Assembly: GCF_055900595.2 (NCBI RefSeq) | Contig: NZ_CM148325.1 | Direction: 5' to 3' (one strand) | Length of the DNA stretch: 64,000 bases | In this document: in pieces, positions 2,449-46,651 of the stretch | Position numbering within the stretch: the stretch's first letter is position 1 | Layout of the letters: each line of letters starts with the position of its first letter | Notes under the pieces: generated by a model | Database searches by the model: none | Seen by the model: the letters and a program-made list of their open reading frames with translations, nothing else | Told to the model about the DNA's origin: nothing | Translations under genes and position numbers: made by a program

Positions 2449-3588
2449 ATGAGCGCGGGAAGCCCAAAATTCACCGTTCGCCGCATTGCGGCTTTGTCAC
2501 TGGTTTCGCTATGGCTGGCAGGCTGTTCTGACACTTCAAATCCACCGGCACCGGTCAGCTCCGTTAATGGCAATGCGTCTGCAAACACCAATTCTGGTAT
2601 GTTGATTACGCCGCCGCCGAAAATGGGGACGACGTCTACAACGCAGCAACCGCAAATTCAGCCGGTACAGCAGCCACAAATTCAATCTGCACAACAACCG
2701 CAAATCCAGCCAGTGCAGCCAGTAGCTCAGCAGCCGGTACAGATGGAAAACGGACGCATCGTCTACAACCGTCAGTATGGGAACATTCCGAAAGGCAGTT
2801 ATAGCGGCAGTACATACACCGTGAAAAAAGGCGACACACTTTTCTATATCGCCTGGATTACTGGCAATGATTTCCGTGACCTTGCTCAGCGCAACAATAT
2901 TCAGGCACCATACGCGCTGAATGTAGGTCAGACCTTACAGGTGGGTAATGCTTCCGGTACGCCAATCACTGGTGGAAATGCCATTACCCAGGCCGATGCA
3001 GCAGAGCAAGGAGTTGTGATCAAGCCTGCACAAAATTCCACCGTTGCTGTTGCGTCGCAACCGACAATTACGTATTCTGAGTCTTCGGGTGAACAGAGTG
3101 CTAACAAAATGTTGCCGAACAACAAGCCAACTGGGACCACGGTCACAGCGCCTGTAACGGTACCAACAGCAAGCACAACCGAGCCGACTGTCAGCAGTAC
3201 ATCAACCAGTGCGCCTATCTCCACCTGGCGCTGGCCGACTGAGGGCAAAGTGATCGAAACCTTTGGTGCTTCTGAGGGGGGTAACAAGGGGATTGATATC
3301 GCAGGCAGCAAAGGACAGGCAATTATCGCGACCGCAGATGGCCGCGTTGTTTATGCCGGTAACGCGCTGCGCGGCTACGGTAATCTGATTATCATCAAAC
3401 ATAATGATGATTACCTGAGTGCCTACGCCCATAACGACACAATGCTGGTCCGGGAACAACAAGAAGTGAAGGCGGGGCAAAAAATAGCGACTATGGGTAG
3501 CACCGGAACCAGTTCAACACGCTTGCATTTTGAAATTCGTTACAAGGGGAAATCCGTAAACCCGCTGCGCTATTTGCCGCAGCGATAA
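2449..3588 (+). CDS. nlpD: murein hydrolase activator lipoprotein NlpD (LysM + M23 peptidase domains)
   Basis: 379 aa, lipobox LAGC, Q/P-rich tandem repeat, C-terminal M23-like region; sits immediately upstream of rpoS. Confidence 0.93.
3050..3085 (+). promoter_or_regulatory. putative major rpoS promoter inside nlpD (-35 TTGCGT 3050-3055, 17 bp spacer, -10 TATTCT 3073-3078)
   Basis: Hexamers seen in sequence ~566 nt upstream of rpoS ATG, matching the known position of the rpoS promoter within nlpD. Confidence 0.55.
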
Positions 3589-3650
3589 ATCGGCGGAACC
3601 AGGCTTTTGCTTGAATGTTCCGTCAAGGGATCACGGGTAGGAGCCACCTT

Positions 3651-4643
3651 ATGAGTCAGAATACGCTGAAAGTTCATGATTTAAATGAAGATGCGGAATT
3701 TGATGAGAACGGAGTTGAGGTTTTTGACGAAAAGGCCTTAGTAGAAGAGGAACCCAGTGATAACGATTTGGCCGAAGAGGAACTGTTATCGCAAGGGGCC
3801 ACACAGCGTGTGTTGGACGCGACTCAGCTTTACCTTGGTGAGATTGGTTATTCACCACTGTTAACGGCCGAAGAAGAAGTTTATTTTGCGCGTCGCGCAC
3901 TGCGAGGAGATGTTGCCTCCCGCCGCCGGATGATCGAGAGTAACTTGCGTCTGGTGGTAAAAATTGCCCGCCGTTATGGCAATCGTGGTCTGGCTTTGCT
4001 GGATCTTATCGAAGAGGGCAACCTGGGGCTGATCCGCGCGGTAGAGAAGTTTGACCCGGAACGTGGTTTCCGCTTCTCAACATACGCAACCTGGTGGATT
4101 CGCCAGACGATCGAGCGGGCGATTATGAACCAAACCCGTACTATTCGTTTGCCGATTCACATCGTAAAGGAGCTGAACGTTTACCTGCGAACCGCACGTG
4201 AGTTGTCGCATAAACTGGACCACGAACCAAGTGCGGAAGAGATCGCAGAGCAACTGGATAAGCCAGTTGATGACGTCAGCCGTATGCTTCGTCTTAACGA
4301 GCGCATTACCTCGGTGGACACCCCGCTGGGTGGAGATTCCGAAAAAGCGTTGCTGGACATCCTGGCCGATGAAAAAGAAAACGGCCCGGAAGATACCACG
4401 CAAGATGACGATATGAAACAAAGCATCGTCAAATGGCTGTTCGAACTGAACGCCAAACAGCGTGAAGTGCTGGCACGTCGATTCGGTTTGCTGGGGTACG
4501 AAGCGGCAACACTGGAAGATGTAGGTCGTGAAATTGGCCTCACCCGTGAACGTGTTCGCCAGATTCAGGTTGAAGGCCTGCGCCGTTTGCGCGAAATCCT
4601 GCAAACGCAGGGGCTGAATATCGAAGCGCTGTTCCGCGAATAA
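3651..4643 (+). CDS. rpoS: RNA polymerase sigma factor RpoS (sigma-38), full length
   Basis: ORF 3615..4643; start at internal Met ([11 protein letters not shown]...) gives 330 aa; no premature stop; codon 33 is GAG. Confidence 0.95.
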
Positions 4644-5317: not shown

Positions 5318-5911
5318 ATGAGACTGATCGTCGGGATGACAGGGGCCACCGGAGCGCCTCTTGGTGTGGCATTACTGCAAGCGCTGCGGGAGATGCCGAA
5401 TGTCGAGACTCATCTGGTGATGTCGAAGTGGGCGAAAACCACCATTGAACTGGAAACGCTTTACAACGCCCGCGATGTTGCTGCCCTCGCAGACTTCTGC
5501 CATAACCCGGCGGATCAGGCCGCAACCATCTCCTCAGGTTCCTTTCGTACCGACGGCATGATCGTTATTCCGTGCAGTATGAAAACGCTCGCCGGTATCC
5601 GCGCTGGTTACGCCGATGGCCTGGTAGGGCGCGCGGCGGACGTCGTGCTCAAAGAAGGCCGCAAACTGGTGCTGGTGCCGCGTGAAATGCCGCTTAGCAC
5701 CATCCATCTCGAAAATATGCTCGCACTTTCGCGCATGGGCGTGGCGATGGTGCCGCCGATGCCTGCCTTTTATAACCATCCCGAAACGGTAGATGACATT
5801 GTCCACCACGTGGTAGCCCGCGTGCTGGATCAATTTGGCCTCGAACATCCTCACGCCAGGCGCTGGCAAGGATTGCCGCAGGCCCGGAATTTTTCCCAGG
5901 AGAATGAATAA
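5318..5911 (+). CDS. UbiX-family flavin prenyltransferase paralogue (decarboxylase B subunit)
   Basis: 197 aa; MRLIVGMTGATGA flavoprotein motif; first gene of a three-gene operon. Confidence 0.85.
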   Translation: MRLIVGMTGATGAPLGVALLQALREMPNVETHLVMSKWAKTTIELETLYNARDVAALADFCHNPADQAATISSGSFRTDGMIVIPCSMKTLAGIRAGYADGLVGRAADVVLKEGRKLVLVPREMPLSTIHLENMLALSRMGVAMVPPMPAFYNHPETVDDIVHHVVARVLDQFGLEHPHARRWQGLPQARNFSQENE

Positions 5912-9233: not shown

Positions 9234-9262
9234 AATCCCCGATGGGAAGGCCATCGGGGATT
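9234..9262 (-). terminator. rho-independent terminator downstream of mutS
   Basis: Palindrome ATCCCCGATGG...CCATCGGGGAT directly after mutS stop, followed by AT-rich run on minus strand. Confidence 0.6.
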
Positions 9263-27159: not shown

Positions 27160-27250
27160 CCAGATTGCCCGATGCGCTGCGCTTATCGGGCCTACATGTC
27201 GCACGAACTATGTAGGCCGGATAAGGCGTTCACGCCGCATCCGGCACGTT
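27160..27250. repeat. BIME (pair of inverted REP elements)
   Basis: gcccgatgcgctgcgcttatcgggcctaca ... tgtaggccggataaggcgttcacgccgcatccggca. Confidence 0.8.
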
Positions 27251-34204: not shown

Positions 34205-34295
34205 CAGTGCCGGATGCGGCGTGAACGCCTTATCCGGCCTACACATGCGCTTCCCGTAGGTCGGATAAGACGCGCCAGCGTCGCATCCGACATTT
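34205..34295. repeat. BIME (pair of REP elements) between hypF and norW
   Basis: gccggatgcggcgtgaacgccttatccggcctaca ... gtaggtcggataagacgcgccagcgtcgcatccgaca. Confidence 0.8.
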
Positions 34296-37068: not shown

Positions 37069-38583
37069 ATGAGTTTTTCCGTTGATGTGCTGGCGAATAT
37101 CGCCATCGAATTGCAGCGTGGGATTGGTCATCAGGATCGTTTTCAGCGCCTGATCACCACGCTGCGTCAGGTGCTGGAGTGCGATGCGTCTGCGTTGCTA
37201 CGTTACGACTCGCGGCAGTTTATTCCGCTTGCCATCGACGGGCTGGCGAAGGATGTACTCGGTAGACGCTTTGCGCTGGAAGGTCATCCACGGCTGGAAG
37301 CGATTGCCCGCGCCGGGGACGTGGTGCGTTTTCCCGCAGACAGCGAATTGCCCGATCCTTATGACGGTTTGATTCCCGGGCAGGAGAGTCTGAAGGTTCA
37401 CGCCTGCGTTGGTCTGCCGTTATTTGCCGGACAAAACCTGATCGGTGCATTGACACTCGACGGGATGCAGCCCGATCAGTTCGATGTTTTCAGCGACGAA
37501 GAGTTACGGCTGATTGCCGCGCTGGCGGCGGGAGCGTTAAGCAATGCGTTGCTGATTGAACAGCTGGAAAGTCAGAATATGCTGCCGGGCGATGCCGCGC
37601 CGTTTGAAGCGCTGAAAGAGACGCAGATGATCGGCCTGTCGCCAGGCATGACGCAATTGAAAAAAGAGATTGAGATTGTGGCGGCGTCCGATCTCAACGT
37701 CCTAATCAGTGGTGAGACGGGAACGGGTAAGGAGCTGGTGGCGAAAGCGATTCATGAAGCCTCGCCACGGGCGGTGAATCCGTTAGTCTATCTCAACTGT
37801 GCCGCACTGCCGGAAAGTGTGGCGGAAAGTGAGTTGTTTGGGCACGTGAAAGGGGCGTTTACTGGCGCTATCAGTAACCGCAGTGGGAAGTTTGAAATGG
37901 CGGATAACGGCACGCTGTTTCTGGATGAGATCGGCGAGTTGTCGTTGGCATTGCAGGCCAAGCTGCTGCGGGTGTTGCAGTATGGCGATATTCAGCGCGT
38001 TGGCGATGACCGCAGTTTGCGGGTCGATGTGCGCGTGCTGGCGGCGACTAACCGCGACTTGCGCGAAGAGGTGCTGGCAGGGCGATTTCGTGCTGACTTG
38101 TTTCATCGCCTGAGTGTGTTTCCGCTTTCGGTGCCGCCGCTGCGTGAGCGGGGTGATGACGTCATTCTGCTGGCGGGGTATTACTGCGAACAGTGCCGCC
38201 TGCGGTTGGGGCTTTCCCGCGTGGTGTTAAGTTCCGGGGCGCGGAATTTATTGCAACATTATAGTTTCCCGGGGAACGTGCGCGAACTGGAACATGCTAT
38301 TCATCGGGCGGTGGTGCTGGCGAGAGCGACCCGCAGCGGCGATGAAGTGATTCTCGAGGCGCAACATTTTGCTTTTCCTGAGGTGACGTTGCCGCCGCCA
38401 GAAGCGGCGGCGGTGCCTATTGTTAAGCAAAACCTGCGTGAAGCGACAGAAGCGTTCCAGCGTGAAACTATTCGCCAGGCGCTGGCACAAAATCATCACA
38501 ACTGGGCTGCCAGCGCACGGATGCTGGAAACCGACGTCGCCAACCTGCATCGGCTGGCGAAACGTCTGGGGCTGAAGGATTAA
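37069..38583 (+). CDS. norR: nitric oxide-responsive sigma54 activator NorR
   Basis: 504 aa; GAF + AAA+ ([14 protein letters not shown]) + HTH. Confidence 0.94.
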
Positions 38584-39545
38584 ATAATCCCGGCCTGATA
38601 GAAATCCTGCAGGTTAATTGCGCCGGTAAGTTTGCCATTTTCATCCACCACTGGTGCGGCGGTGATTTTGCGCTTCATCAGAACTTCTTTGGCGTCGATG
38701 GCGCGACTTTGCGATAGCAACGTCGTGCCGCCTGCCGTCATCGCTTCATTAACTGGCGTGGTGAGTGCACCGCCGCCAACCAGCCAGCGACGTAAATCCC
38801 CGTCGGTAAAGACGCCTTTCACCAGCCGTTGATCGTCGCACACGGCTACCAGTCCCAGACCGGTGCGACTAAGTTCCAGCATCGCATCCATCACGCTGGC
38901 GGTTAACGCCACCTGCGGGATGGTGTCATCACGGCGCATCAGATGATGCACTTTGTTCAGCAAGCGAGCGCCCAGAGCCCCAGCTGGGTGGGAGCGGGCA
39001 AAATCTTCTTCATTAAATCCGCGCGCCTGCATGACCGCCATCGCCAGCGCGTCGCCCATCATCAGGGTATTGACGGTGCTGGAGGTCGGCGCAAGGTGCA
39101 TCGGGCAGGCTTCGCGTTCTACAGAGATATCCAGCACCGCTTTCGCCGCCAGGCCCAGCGGTGATGTCGGTTTACCGGTCATCGCCAGCAGCGCGATAGA
39201 TTTGTCTTCCAGACGCGGAATAATCAGATCCAGTTCCTTTGCGCCACCGGAGTAAGAGATAAACAGCATCACATCGCGGCTTTCAATCATCCCCAGATCG
39301 CCGTGCAGTGCTTCTGCCGGATGGACAAAAAAAGCAGGCGTGCCGGTACTGGCAAGCGTTGCGGCGATTTTCTTACCAATGTGGCCCGATTTGCCAATTC
39401 CCGAAACCACCACTTTGCCTTCGCAGTGCAGGATGATATTGGCGGCGCGAACAAAATCATCGCCCAGACGTTCTGGTAAACGGCTTGCTTCCTGCAACTC
39501 CAGCATTAACGTCTGACGCCCCGCGTTCAGTAGTGCTTCACTCAT
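38580..39545 (-). CDS. gutQ: arabinose-5-phosphate isomerase GutQ
   Basis: 321 aa SIS + CBS-pair protein at end of srl operon. Confidence 0.92.
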
Positions 39546-40311
39546 TGCTCTCTCCGGTTATGATCACATCGATCCCTTTCTCTTCCAGCGCCTGACGAAA
39601 CGCCGGATCGATACCTGCGTCGGTAATCAGCTTATCGACGCTTTCAAGACTACAAACCACGTTGGGGCTTTTACGGCCAAACTTCGATGAGTCAGCCATC
39701 AAAATCACTTCGCGCGCGGCATTACACATCGCTTTACTGACGGTATAGACCTCGTTGAAGGTGGTTACGCCTGCATTGAGATCGATGCCATCGGTGCCCA
39801 TAAACAATTTATCGAAGCTGAAATGTTCGAAGGCGTTCTCTGCCAGCTGCCCGTGAAATGAGGCCGATTTTTTACGAAATGTGCCGCCTGGCATCAGGAT
39901 AGTTTGTTCGTTATCCAGTTCGGATAGCGCATTGACGATGTGCAGGCTGTTGGTCATCACCGTGATGTTATTAAAGCGCGAGAGCAGGGGCACCATCTGT
40001 AATACAGTACTTCCAGCATCAAGAATGATTGAATCGCCATCATGAATAAAACTGACGGCAGCTTCTGCAATCAGCTCTTTCTTGTGGGTGTTGATGAGTG
40101 TTTTATGATCGATAGGCGGATCGGATTCCTCTTTATTCAACACCACTCCGCCATAAGTACGAATGACGGTTCCTGCATGTTCCAGAATGACCAGATCTTT
40201 GCGAATGGTTGTGCCTGTGGTGTCAAAGTATTGCGCCAATTCTTCAACCGAGCATTTCCCCTGCTTTTGCAGGTACTCCAGAATGGCGGCCTGACGCTGA
40301 CGAGGTTTCAT
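39538..40311 (-). CDS. srlR: DeoR-family glucitol operon repressor
   Basis: 257 aa DeoR HTH + sugar-binding domain. Confidence 0.92.
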
Positions 40312-40377
40312 GGGCGTGATTACCTGATTTAGGTTTCAAAATGATAACTTCGCAAGCTAGTAACATTCACAACGAAA

Positions 40378-40737
40378 TTATCCACGTTTCAGTTTAAGCG
40401 CCAATGATAGAGCATTCTGTGATAGTGGATCATGGGGAAAGATCACATCGGGCTGTAAATCAGCAGAATGCATGCCCGTAATTGCGGGAATTTTTTGCGG
40501 TCGGGCGAAGACAGTCAGTCCTTTCATAAACAAGGTGTCGACGATGCGCTGCTGATCGTCCAGGGCGATGGCGACCACGACCCGCGGTTTAAAGCGCCCG
40601 CTGGAACGGCCCACGCCAACCCGCCCTTGCTGGCAAAGTGCGTCGAAGGCGCGGTTAAAACGAGAAATTTGCCAGCCGCCTAAGGCCAGTTGCGCACACC
40701 AGGCGATAACGGCGACGGTGATGAGTGTGGATACCAT
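40378..40737 (-). CDS. srlM: glucitol operon activator GutM
   Basis: 119 aa, conserved position between srlD and srlR. Confidence 0.88.
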   Translation of the reverse strand: MVSTLITVAVIAWCAQLALGGWQISRFNRAFDALCQQGRVGVGRSSGRFKPRVVVAIALDDQQRIVDTLFMKGLTVFARPQKIPAITGMHSADLQPDVIFPHDPLSQNALSLALKLKRG

Positions 40738-40842
40738 AACTTTTCCTTAATGTAGCGGCGGAAGTCCTGTAGGCCTGATCAACGTAGCGCATCAGGCATT
40801 CTATTAGTCTCGCGGAGATCCTTAACGGATCTCCGCTGTTGA

Positions 40843-41997
<1,155 letters not shown>

Positions 41998-42007
41998 GTT
42001 TCAGCCT

Positions 42008-43545
<1,538 letters not shown>

Positions 43546-45506: not shown

Positions 45507-45510
<4 letters not shown>
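45013..45510 (+). CDS. pncC: NMN amidohydrolase PncC (CinA-like C-terminal domain)
   Basis: ~165 aa ORF immediately upstream of recA. Confidence 0.88.

Positions 45511-46651
<1,141 letters not shown>

Follow-up and report, generated by a model that had tools for sequence, protein, structure and literature searches.

Among intercistronic REP elements located at mRNA ends, the classic case is said to be that of the malE-malF REPs, reportedly described by Newbury, Higgins and colleagues in 1987. The defining features of a REP are a GTAG tetranucleotide at the foot of the palindrome and a mismatch in the stem (PMC3333891). Three REP queries are known for Escherichia coli, one of which is the z1 query GCCTGATGCGCTACGCTTATCAGGCCTAC, and the natural target of IS621 in REPs is ATCAGGCCTAC with a CT core (PMC11208160). 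Recently, REP325 of the yjdM-yjdN operon was revealed to combine partial Rho-dependent termination with stabilisation of the mRNA upstream of it, and REP-containing tandem gene pairs showed a median log2 upstream/downstream value of 0.96 versus -0.09 in controls (Harris et al. 2026 preprint). The same authors found no uniform lengthening of mRNA half-lives by REPs, the effects of which depend on context. Where Rho ends transcription, the 3' ends seen at steady state are precise and lie right after stable stem-loops without U-tails, the stems of which block PNPase and RNase II (PMC6061677). REPs that lie close to a stop codon (<16 nt) have also been reported to lower translation (Liang, Rudd and Deutscher 2015, summarised in PMC12306157).

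The spacer between srlD and gutM in the sorbitol operon of E. coli holds two palindromes, of which palindrome 1 is a REP and palindrome 2, hereafter hairpin 2, is not. Like other z1 REPs of E. coli, palindrome 1 shows the sequence class, the GTAG/CTAC tag, the stem mismatch, the copy number and the targeting by IS621; like other intercistronic REPs of this species, it is extragenic, lies between co-oriented genes of one operon and separates an upstream segment from a less abundant downstream one. Unlike BIME-type REPs, it is a single unit; its inner stem is weakened by two substitutions in the window strain, and the K-12 copy carries the tag GTAT. REP325 shares with this junction the position between tandem genes of an operon, the lack of a U-tract, the partial effect of bicyclomycin and the excess of the upstream over the downstream gene, whereas it comprises 12 palindromic units of the z2 and y types and the srlD-gutM spacer has one z1 unit and a non-REP hairpin. 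As at Rho-dependent protected 3' ends, the 3' end mapped here in K-12 lies just past a stable stem-loop without a uridine tail and is followed by a mildly C-rich stretch; nevertheless, this end is intra-operonic, read-through is substantial and Rho dependence is modest (1.91). Hairpin 2 resembles stop-proximal REPs in being a stable palindrome that starts fewer than 16 nt past a stop codon (here 6 nt), but the proximal palindrome is in this case not a REP. With Rho-independent terminators the two hairpins share a G+C-rich stem-loop after a gene, but not a U-tract, a call on the minus strand or a sufficient score (1.51 vs 3). The junction is thus best read as a textbook intra-operon mRNA-end or attenuation element of an already known kind, consisting of an annotated REP and a conventional unique stem-loop, with a 3' end that stands in a public table. 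Its meaning beyond annotation is small, and its role is the one expected from forty years of REP work.

A REP and a unique hairpin between srlD and gutM

The stretch analysed, 64,000 nucleotides of contig NZ_CM148325.1 (assembly GCF_055900595.2) and referred to here as the window, is identical over positions 40300-41300 to E. coli Z0117EC0005 (NZ_CP098223.1; 100% identity), and is 96-97% identical over the same positions to most of 5,410 other genomes. According to the ORF list and the RefSeq annotation, the sorbitol operon srlAEBD-gutM-srlR-gutQ is encoded on the minus strand, and both palindromes lie where the first-pass annotation had placed them, between the structural genes and the regulatory genes gutM-srlR-gutQ (Table 1). 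Reading along the mRNA, the UGA of srlD is followed by 6 nt, hairpin 2, 14 nt, the REP GCCUGAUGCGCUACGUUGAUCAGGC with CUAC, 31 nt that include AAGGAAAA, and the AUG of gutM. A Shine-Dalgarno sequence, AAGGAG or AAGGAA, is kept before gutM in nearly all loci compared. An extra small hairpin that would mask this Shine-Dalgarno (-4.8 kcal/mol, z +0.8) was no better than shuffled sequences and was rejected. A 45-aa ORF at 40655-40792, which has its ATG inside the REP and runs out of frame over gutM, was treated as a mechanical ORF.

Table 1 Features of the srl operon and its srlD-gutM junction in the window, with RNA abundance of the corresponding genes in K-12 (baseMean, and baseMean per nt of gene length)
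Feature	Positions	Strand	K-12 baseMean	Per nt	Remarks
srlA	42964-43527	-	5059	9.0	
srlE	42008-42967	-	9888	10.3	
srlB	41626-41997	-	3582	9.6	
srlD	40843-41622	-	14816	19.0	sorbitol-6-phosphate dehydrogenase, last structural gene; ORF list, RefSeq annotation of identical strain and K-12
srlD stop TGA	40845-40843	-			
srlD-gutM spacer	40738-40842				105 nt
Hairpin 2 (palindrome 2)	40812-40836	-			locus-specific RNA stem-loop GCGGAGAUCC-GUUAA-GGAUCUCCGC, two GATC sites inside; plus-strand letters gcggagatccttaacggatctccgc
Candidate -35-like TTAAGG	40825-40820	-			loop and 3' arm of hairpin 2; 16-nt spacing to TAGAAT, 8/12 matches
Candidate -10-like TAGAAT	40798-40803	-			between the hairpins; relaxed hexamer scan
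REP, z1 class, single copy	40769-40797	-			iREP orientation on mRNA, GCCUGAUGCGCUACGUUGAUCAGGC and CUAC
Palindrome 1	40773-40797	+			plus-strand letters gcctgatcaacgtagcgcatcaggc
GTAG tag	40769-40772	+			immediately 5' of GCCTGAT at 40773
Equivalent of K-12 3' end 2828590	40768	-			via alignment; Adams et al. supplementary files 1 and 3
gutM Shine-Dalgarno region	40741-40748	-			AAGGAAAA, read from sequence
gutM	40378-40737	-	590	1.6	first regulatory gene past the junction; ORF list, annotation
srlR	39538-40311	-	2494	3.2	
gutQ	38580-39545	-	2536	2.6	

Palindrome 1 is a REP of the z1 class, as is indicated by its agreement with the consensus, its tag, its stem mismatch, its copy number and its extragenic site. 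On the minus strand it agrees with the z1 consensus at 27/29 positions, with two mismatches, and in its fold a perfect outer stem of 7 bp is separated by a mismatch from a short inner stem. When 5,426 complete E. coli genomes were searched with blastn (E <= 10), a 37-nt query of palindrome 1 was found in 5425 of them, at a median of at least 40 places per genome (at least 40 places in 3,977 records). Three other REPs lie within the window, at 27167-27195, 27216-27245 and 34209-34238. The first-pass annotation had called both palindromes strong. This description suits hairpin 2 but not palindrome 1, the RNA of which (minus strand) reaches -11.1 kcal/mol with z = -1.9 and is matched in stability by 11/200 shuffles. 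The significance of palindrome 1 lies in its membership in a dispersed repeat, and not in its fold energy.

Previous annotation and natural insertions bear on the same assignment. In K-12, gutM is marked 'REP-adjacent: Yes' (Harris et al., Table 10), indicating that the srlD-gutM REP has already been annotated. The K-12 RefSeq record carries no repeat_region features, even at the REPs of norW-hypF and ascB-hycI, and its silence at srlD-gutM is therefore uninformative. The srlD-gutM REP contains the IS621 target ATCAGGCCTAC, and in strain SCU-301 an IS621 copy is inserted in this REP at ATCAGGC|CT|AC with the CT duplicated. This insertion supports the assignment indirectly, in that mobile elements treat the element as a REP. 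In Rfam, no family reached its gathering threshold; the best score was that of NiCo-AnGGAG (25.4 bits vs 64.5), and naRNA4, which is derived from REP325, scored 14.5 bits against a gathering threshold of 59.5.

The REP varies among Escherichia strains. It matches the z1 consensus at 29/29 positions in the Escherichia loci L003-L007 and L073, whereas the window copy has two substitutions that weaken the inner stem. In K-12, two differences from the consensus destroy the GTAG tag and lengthen the stem; the tag reads GTAT in K-12 and O157, so that the K-12 copy lacks this feature of TnpA-REP recognition. The fold energies are -18.2 kcal/mol for the K-12 copy, -13.2 for the consensus copy and -11.1 for the window copy. 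Having lost the mobile-element tag and gained stem stability, the K-12 REP would suit testing whether REPs are retained for an RNA function.

Hairpin 2 is of a different nature. Its arms, 40812-40821 and 40827-40836, are 10 nt each and 100% complementary around a loop of 5 nt, so the perfect 10-bp stem reported earlier is real. The RNA of its minus strand has a fold energy of -20.8 kcal/mol (z = -6.4), a stability that 0 of 200 shuffles attained. The 64-kb window has 2 loci with a perfect stem of at least 10 bp and a loop of 3-8 nt; the mean for dinucleotide-shuffled versions of the sequence is 0.37 hits. In the same blastn search, a 43-nt query of hairpin 2 was found at one place per genome in 5407-5408 of the 5426 genomes, and the entire srlD-gutM spacer was found in 5,408/5,426. 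Given this single copy at E <= 10, hairpin 2 as a decayed partner of the REP was rejected. Since it is not a REP, the palindrome pair is not a BIME: the single-copy neighbour does not provide the inverse second REP expected beside the first, the query of which hits at least 40 places.

An alignment of 16 Escherichia sequences, comprising the window, representatives of the E. coli phylogroups, E. whittamii and other Escherichia species, retained hairpin 2 in all 16. The loop varies (GUUAA, AUUAA, UUUAA and UUAAA). Among the 20 stem positions, substitutions are of three kinds only, and all of them replace Watson-Crick pairing by G.U on the mRNA strand: K-12 and O157 have U for the closing C, L077 and L080 have U for C at position 10 of the 5' arm, and L007 has G for A in the 3' arm. 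Read on the opposite strand, the same substitutions would give A.C mismatches, so that the pattern favours an RNA stem of the srl message. As evidence for conservation, three one-sided events and no compensatory double change are weak.

Transcript ends and RNA levels in K-12

The two checks that had been proposed for the junction, a step in RNA-seq coverage and the mapping of 3' ends, could be carried out on public K-12 data, and both gave the predicted outcome. Term-seq of K-12 MG1655 in LB at OD 0.4 placed a 3' end at 2828590(+) with 4,666 reads (Adams et al. 2021, PMC7815308). It lies 31 nt before the gutM ATG, 1 nt beyond the position of the CUAC tag and, counted from the foot of the K-12 REP hairpin, 3 nt downstream, within the sequence ...CATCAGGCATACA|GG. 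No further 3' ends are given for 2828300-2828799 in supplementary files 1 and 3 of Adams et al., and none after hairpin 2. The two palindromes are accordingly not the equivalent pair that they had first been taken for, one being a member of the REP family and the other a unique hairpin without a mapped 3' end.

Coverage by DirectRNA-seq (Adams et al.), calculated over 800 nt on either side, was 585 upstream and 197 downstream without bicyclomycin, a 3-fold drop, and 309 upstream and 199 downstream with bicyclomycin, by which the drop was halved. The Rho score at the REP 3' end is 1.91, which was flagged as a significant Rho termination region and is below the authors' two-fold guide value. The C>G skew just 3' of the REP is mild (C/G 1.4). 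The 800-nt intervals at the REP overlap a stronger Rho region inside srlR (2829346, score 3.7), and the coverage step could stem from elsewhere, for example from this region.

A second, independent K-12 RNA-seq data set points in the same direction (Harris et al. 2026 supplement). The baseMean values in Table 1 are DESeq2 values from this one study, averaged over wild-type and mutant samples, and the values per nt were computed in the present analysis as baseMean divided by gene length. RNA density falls 6-12-fold from srlD (about 19 per nt) to gutM, srlR and gutQ (1.6-3.2), srlD being the highest and gutM the lowest of the operon. That the 3'-proximal srlD segment exceeds the other structural genes is to be expected if a 3' end is protected. 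In terms of RNA, the srl operon is thus split at the REP-containing spacer, the structural genes being abundantly represented and the regulatory genes scarcely.

The tails past the two stems read GAGACUAAU and CUACAGGAC, and neither hairpin is followed by a U-tract. No terminator-like site was found on the minus strand in 40200-41100, and the published intrinsic-terminator score at the K-12 3' end is 1.51 against a threshold of 3.0. A Rho-independent terminator was rejected on these three grounds. The first-pass suggestion of an intra-operon attenuator or RNA-stability element that uncouples the two halves of the operon survives in part: the K-12 3' end and the coverage step fit it, and an intrinsic attenuator, with no U-tract and a score of 1.51, does not.

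It is probable that 3' hairpins that block exonucleases, together with partial Rho-dependent attenuation, leave the cell with more structural-gene mRNA than regulator mRNA. The structural part of the srl message would carry, in its 3' untranslated tail, two stem-loops encoded by the spacer. As neither hairpin has a U-tract, RNA polymerase is expected to transcribe through both. A fraction of the transcripts would then stop downstream, in part through Rho, or be cut, and 3'-to-5' exonucleases would trim them back to the first stable hairpin, that of the REP, leaving a discrete 3' end just beyond it. Hairpin 2, the stronger of the two in the window strain, may provide a second barrier right behind the srlD stop. 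The outcome would be a long-lived and abundant srlAEBD segment and several-fold less gutM-srlR-gutQ message, so that the boundary would set the mRNA of enzymes and transporter above that of the regulators. The hairpins themselves would thereby cause the coverage step. All of the transcript data were obtained in K-12 in LB with the operon uninduced, and the mechanism may extend to the window strain, a different strain in which the REP is much less stable (-11.1 vs -18.2).

The same junction in other Enterobacteriaceae

A scan for GutM yielded 69 loci. The spacer comparison covers 68 loci in which both SrlD and GutM were located, two of these loci being taken separately from E. coli records. Spacer lengths run from 41 to 612 nt, and what lies between srlD and gutM is non-homologous from genus to genus. 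Citrobacter, Klebsiella, Salmonella and many Enterobacter spacers hold REPs or BIMEs of other classes, with BIME-like pairs in Citrobacter, Klebsiella and Enterobacter. A CCCUCUCCC...GGGAGAGGG stem is found in some Enterobacter and Lelliottia spacers, and Trabulsiella, Pluralibacter, some Kosakonia and others have short GGCCCC...GGGGCC stems at the junction. The distance from stop codon to hairpin varies from 0 to 60 nt.

The 68 loci gave 66 distinct srlD-gutM spacers of at most 200 nt, every one of which contains a hairpin of -10 kcal/mol or lower, and 61/66 reach -15 or lower (median -23.5). The fold z-score of the spacer is below -2 in 58/66 (median z -3.75), whereas the gutM-srlR spacer, used as a control, has a median z of -1.4 and a value of about 0 in Escherichia. 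A strong hairpin in 66/66 spacers next to a weakly structured control indicates a feature of the junction that is family-wide and supplied by different sequences. The sorbitol junction is hence a clean natural case of a hairpin whose position is conserved without conservation of sequence. REPs insert preferentially in 3' intergenic regions, and the recurrence of REPs at this junction may in part reflect such an insertion niche rather than selection.

These comparisons also bear on the possibility that the spacer is neutral or selfish DNA, in which the REP would be the remnant of a mobile element and hairpin 2 incidental, the RNA step arising elsewhere, from termination by Rho within gutM or srlR and from a promoter that srlR has to itself. 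The turnover of spacer REP content between genera, over lengths of 41-612 nt, is what would be seen in such a case, and REPs are in general non-autonomous repeats recognised by TnpA-REP and targeted by IS621 (PMC3333891, PMC11208160), as the hit in the srlD-gutM REP of SCU-301 illustrates. Strong hairpins, however, occupy 66/66 spacers even where there is no REP, next to an unstructured gutM-srlR spacer. Hairpin 2 is likewise kept across the sampled Escherichia species with changes that all preserve pairing, and the K-12 REP has no GTAG tag and yet a more stable stem. The strongest Rho region does sit inside srlR, a promoter-like site at 40404-40377 precedes srlR, and the fold of the window REP is equalled by 11/200 shuffles; on the other hand, K-12 RNA has a discrete 3' end 3 nt past the REP. 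The neutral origin, which leaves the 3' end at the REP and the universal hairpin unexplained, is on balance unlikely.

Promoter, translation and DNA-level readings

The preferred reading, protection of the upstream RNA with partial Rho-dependent attenuation, has also to be weighed against an internal promoter in the spacer or at the srlD 3' end that would drive gutM-srlR-gutQ, with the palindromes as part of the promoter or of a 5' leader and the 3' end as premature termination in this leader. By gSELEX, a peak of RpoD holoenzyme has been assigned to the srlD>gutM spacer (gutM-srlRQ), but the hexamers of this site are not given. Supplementary file 3 of Adams et al. retains 3' ends only where a TSS lies at most 200 nt upstream, and this filter implies a TSS in 2828390-2828570. 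A candidate TTAAGG-16-TAGAAT spans hairpin 2 and the spacer between the hairpins, and its -10-like element is kept as TA[G/A]AAT in all Escherichia sequences aligned; the match to the hexamers is nevertheless weak (8/12), and the combination failed the standard criteria and is absent from the stricter promoter scan. Within srlD, a candidate extended -10, TGcGATTAT, is situated about 170-180 nt upstream of the 3' end. A promoter at this place would have to be reconciled with gutM being the scarcest gene of the operon in RNA-seq, and it would leave unexplained the strong junction hairpins of genera with unrelated spacers. The promoter reading is quite doubtful; it is compatible with the preferred reading, and the two could coexist.

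One more reading is a long shot. The hairpin at this junction in Enterobacteriaceae might be a selected, convergent boundary module that is always kept and yet built from any available sequence, be it REP, BIME, some other repeat or a unique stem, and in Escherichia hairpin 2 might be put to dual use, as the RNA barrier proximal to srlD and, through its loop and 3' arm, as the -35 which together with the TAGAAT -10 would form a promoter of gutM-srlR-gutQ. If true, one stretch of 60 bp would serve both to terminate the message of the structural genes and to initiate that of the regulators.

A brake on translation, in which hairpin 2 would hinder ribosomes terminating at the srlD stop and so reduce the yield of SrlD, is suggested by the position of the hairpin 6 nt past the srlD stop, a distance read directly from the sequence and inside the range of <16 nt reported for down-regulating REPs (PMC12306157); several other genera likewise have a hairpin 4-10 nt from the stop. 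The published effect belongs to REPs, though, and hairpin 2 is not a REP; moreover, no other part of the operon is as abundant in mRNA as srlD, and across genera the distance is spread over 0-60 nt. Such a brake therefore appears very unlikely.

Even less credit can be given to a role at the DNA level (an operator of SrlR or GutM, or a GATC cluster sensitive to Dam and SeqA) or to a classical Rho-independent terminator: although the 10+10 palindrome of hairpin 2 is perfect and holds two GATC sites, and although DNA-level roles of REPs have been proposed in the literature, the stem substitutions keep pairing only as G.U on the mRNA strand, and neither stem has a U-tract behind it (score 1.51). 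An operator of SrlR or GutM at hairpin 2 was rejected, the srlA promoter region being free of any half-site like that of hairpin 2. A full-site match to hairpin 2 occurs in the window only at hairpin 2 itself, and 18/100 shuffles give at least one. The spacer region has four GATC sites in 108 nt compared with 1 per 249 bp in the window as a whole, and two of the four are forced by the palindrome itself.

Variation of the REP in the srlD-gutM spacer

The REP between srlD and gutM, a z1-type copy with the GTAG/CTAC tag, is interrupted in E. coli SCU-301 (NZ_CP051751.1) by IS621, an IS110-family element with a bridge-RNA recombinase. The element occupies positions 3070-4349 of the recovered srl locus (L081), at a site equivalent to window 40769-40772. 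The junction reads exactly ATCAGGC|CT|AC, the CT core flanks both sides, and srlD and gutM are separated by about 1.3 kb through IS621. In the K-12 and O157 copies, GTAT replaces the GTAG tag and a T-to-C change is also present (L001 3560-3591 vs window 40769-40801). Together, the two changes lengthen the stem: the consensus copy folds at -13.2 kcal/mol, this variant at -18.2. In K-12 and O157 the RNA hairpin gains strength while the mobile-element signature disappears.

The spacer itself reaches 612 nt in Kosakonia cowanii (L045) and 550 nt in Phytobacter ursingii (L066), being 41-180 nt elsewhere; the extra length may represent an insertion or an additional small gene. Four GATC (Dam) sites lie in the 108 nt of window 40738-40845, against a window average of one per 249 bp. 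One overlaps the srlD stop codon, two fall in hairpin 2 (the perfect 10-bp stem-loop directly after that stop) and one in the REP variant of this strain; two of the four are imposed by the palindrome itself.

Transcript ends and a candidate promoter within the operon

A strong Rho termination region in K-12 is centred 300 nt into srlR, with values of 697/76 without and 386/156 with bicyclomycin and a score of 3.7 (Adams et al., PMC7815308). C exceeds G in the window near 40012-39986 and 40142-40116. Within srlA, the same public table records another Term-seq 3' end, supported by 1,412 reads (Adams et al., PMC7815308).

Ahead of srlR, the terminal part of gutM contains a candidate sigma-70-like site (TTGGCG-16-GATAAT, 9/12; window 40377-40404, minus strand). 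Such a site would agree with the K-12 RNA-seq coverage, which is higher over srlR and gutQ (~3 reads/nt) than over gutM (1.6 reads/nt).

Other palindromes and REP copies in the window

Besides hairpin 2, the sole perfect palindrome of at least 10 bp in the window is ATCCCCGATGGGAAGGCCATCGGGGAT (9235-9261), with an 11-bp stem. A perfect 9-bp palindrome, ATACTGTATGAGCATACAGTAT, lies at 45510-45531; it follows the CTGT-N8-ACAG pattern of the LexA (SOS) box, and recA is located in the same part of the chromosome.

Further REP copies and mapped transcript features
Feature	Window position	Strand	K-12 coordinate
Inverted REP pair, BIME-like, first copy	27167-27195	+	
Inverted REP pair, BIME-like, second copy	27216-27245	-	
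Lone y-type REP	34209-34238	+	
Rho region inside srlR	~40012	-	2829346
srlA-internal 3' end	~43301	-	2826058
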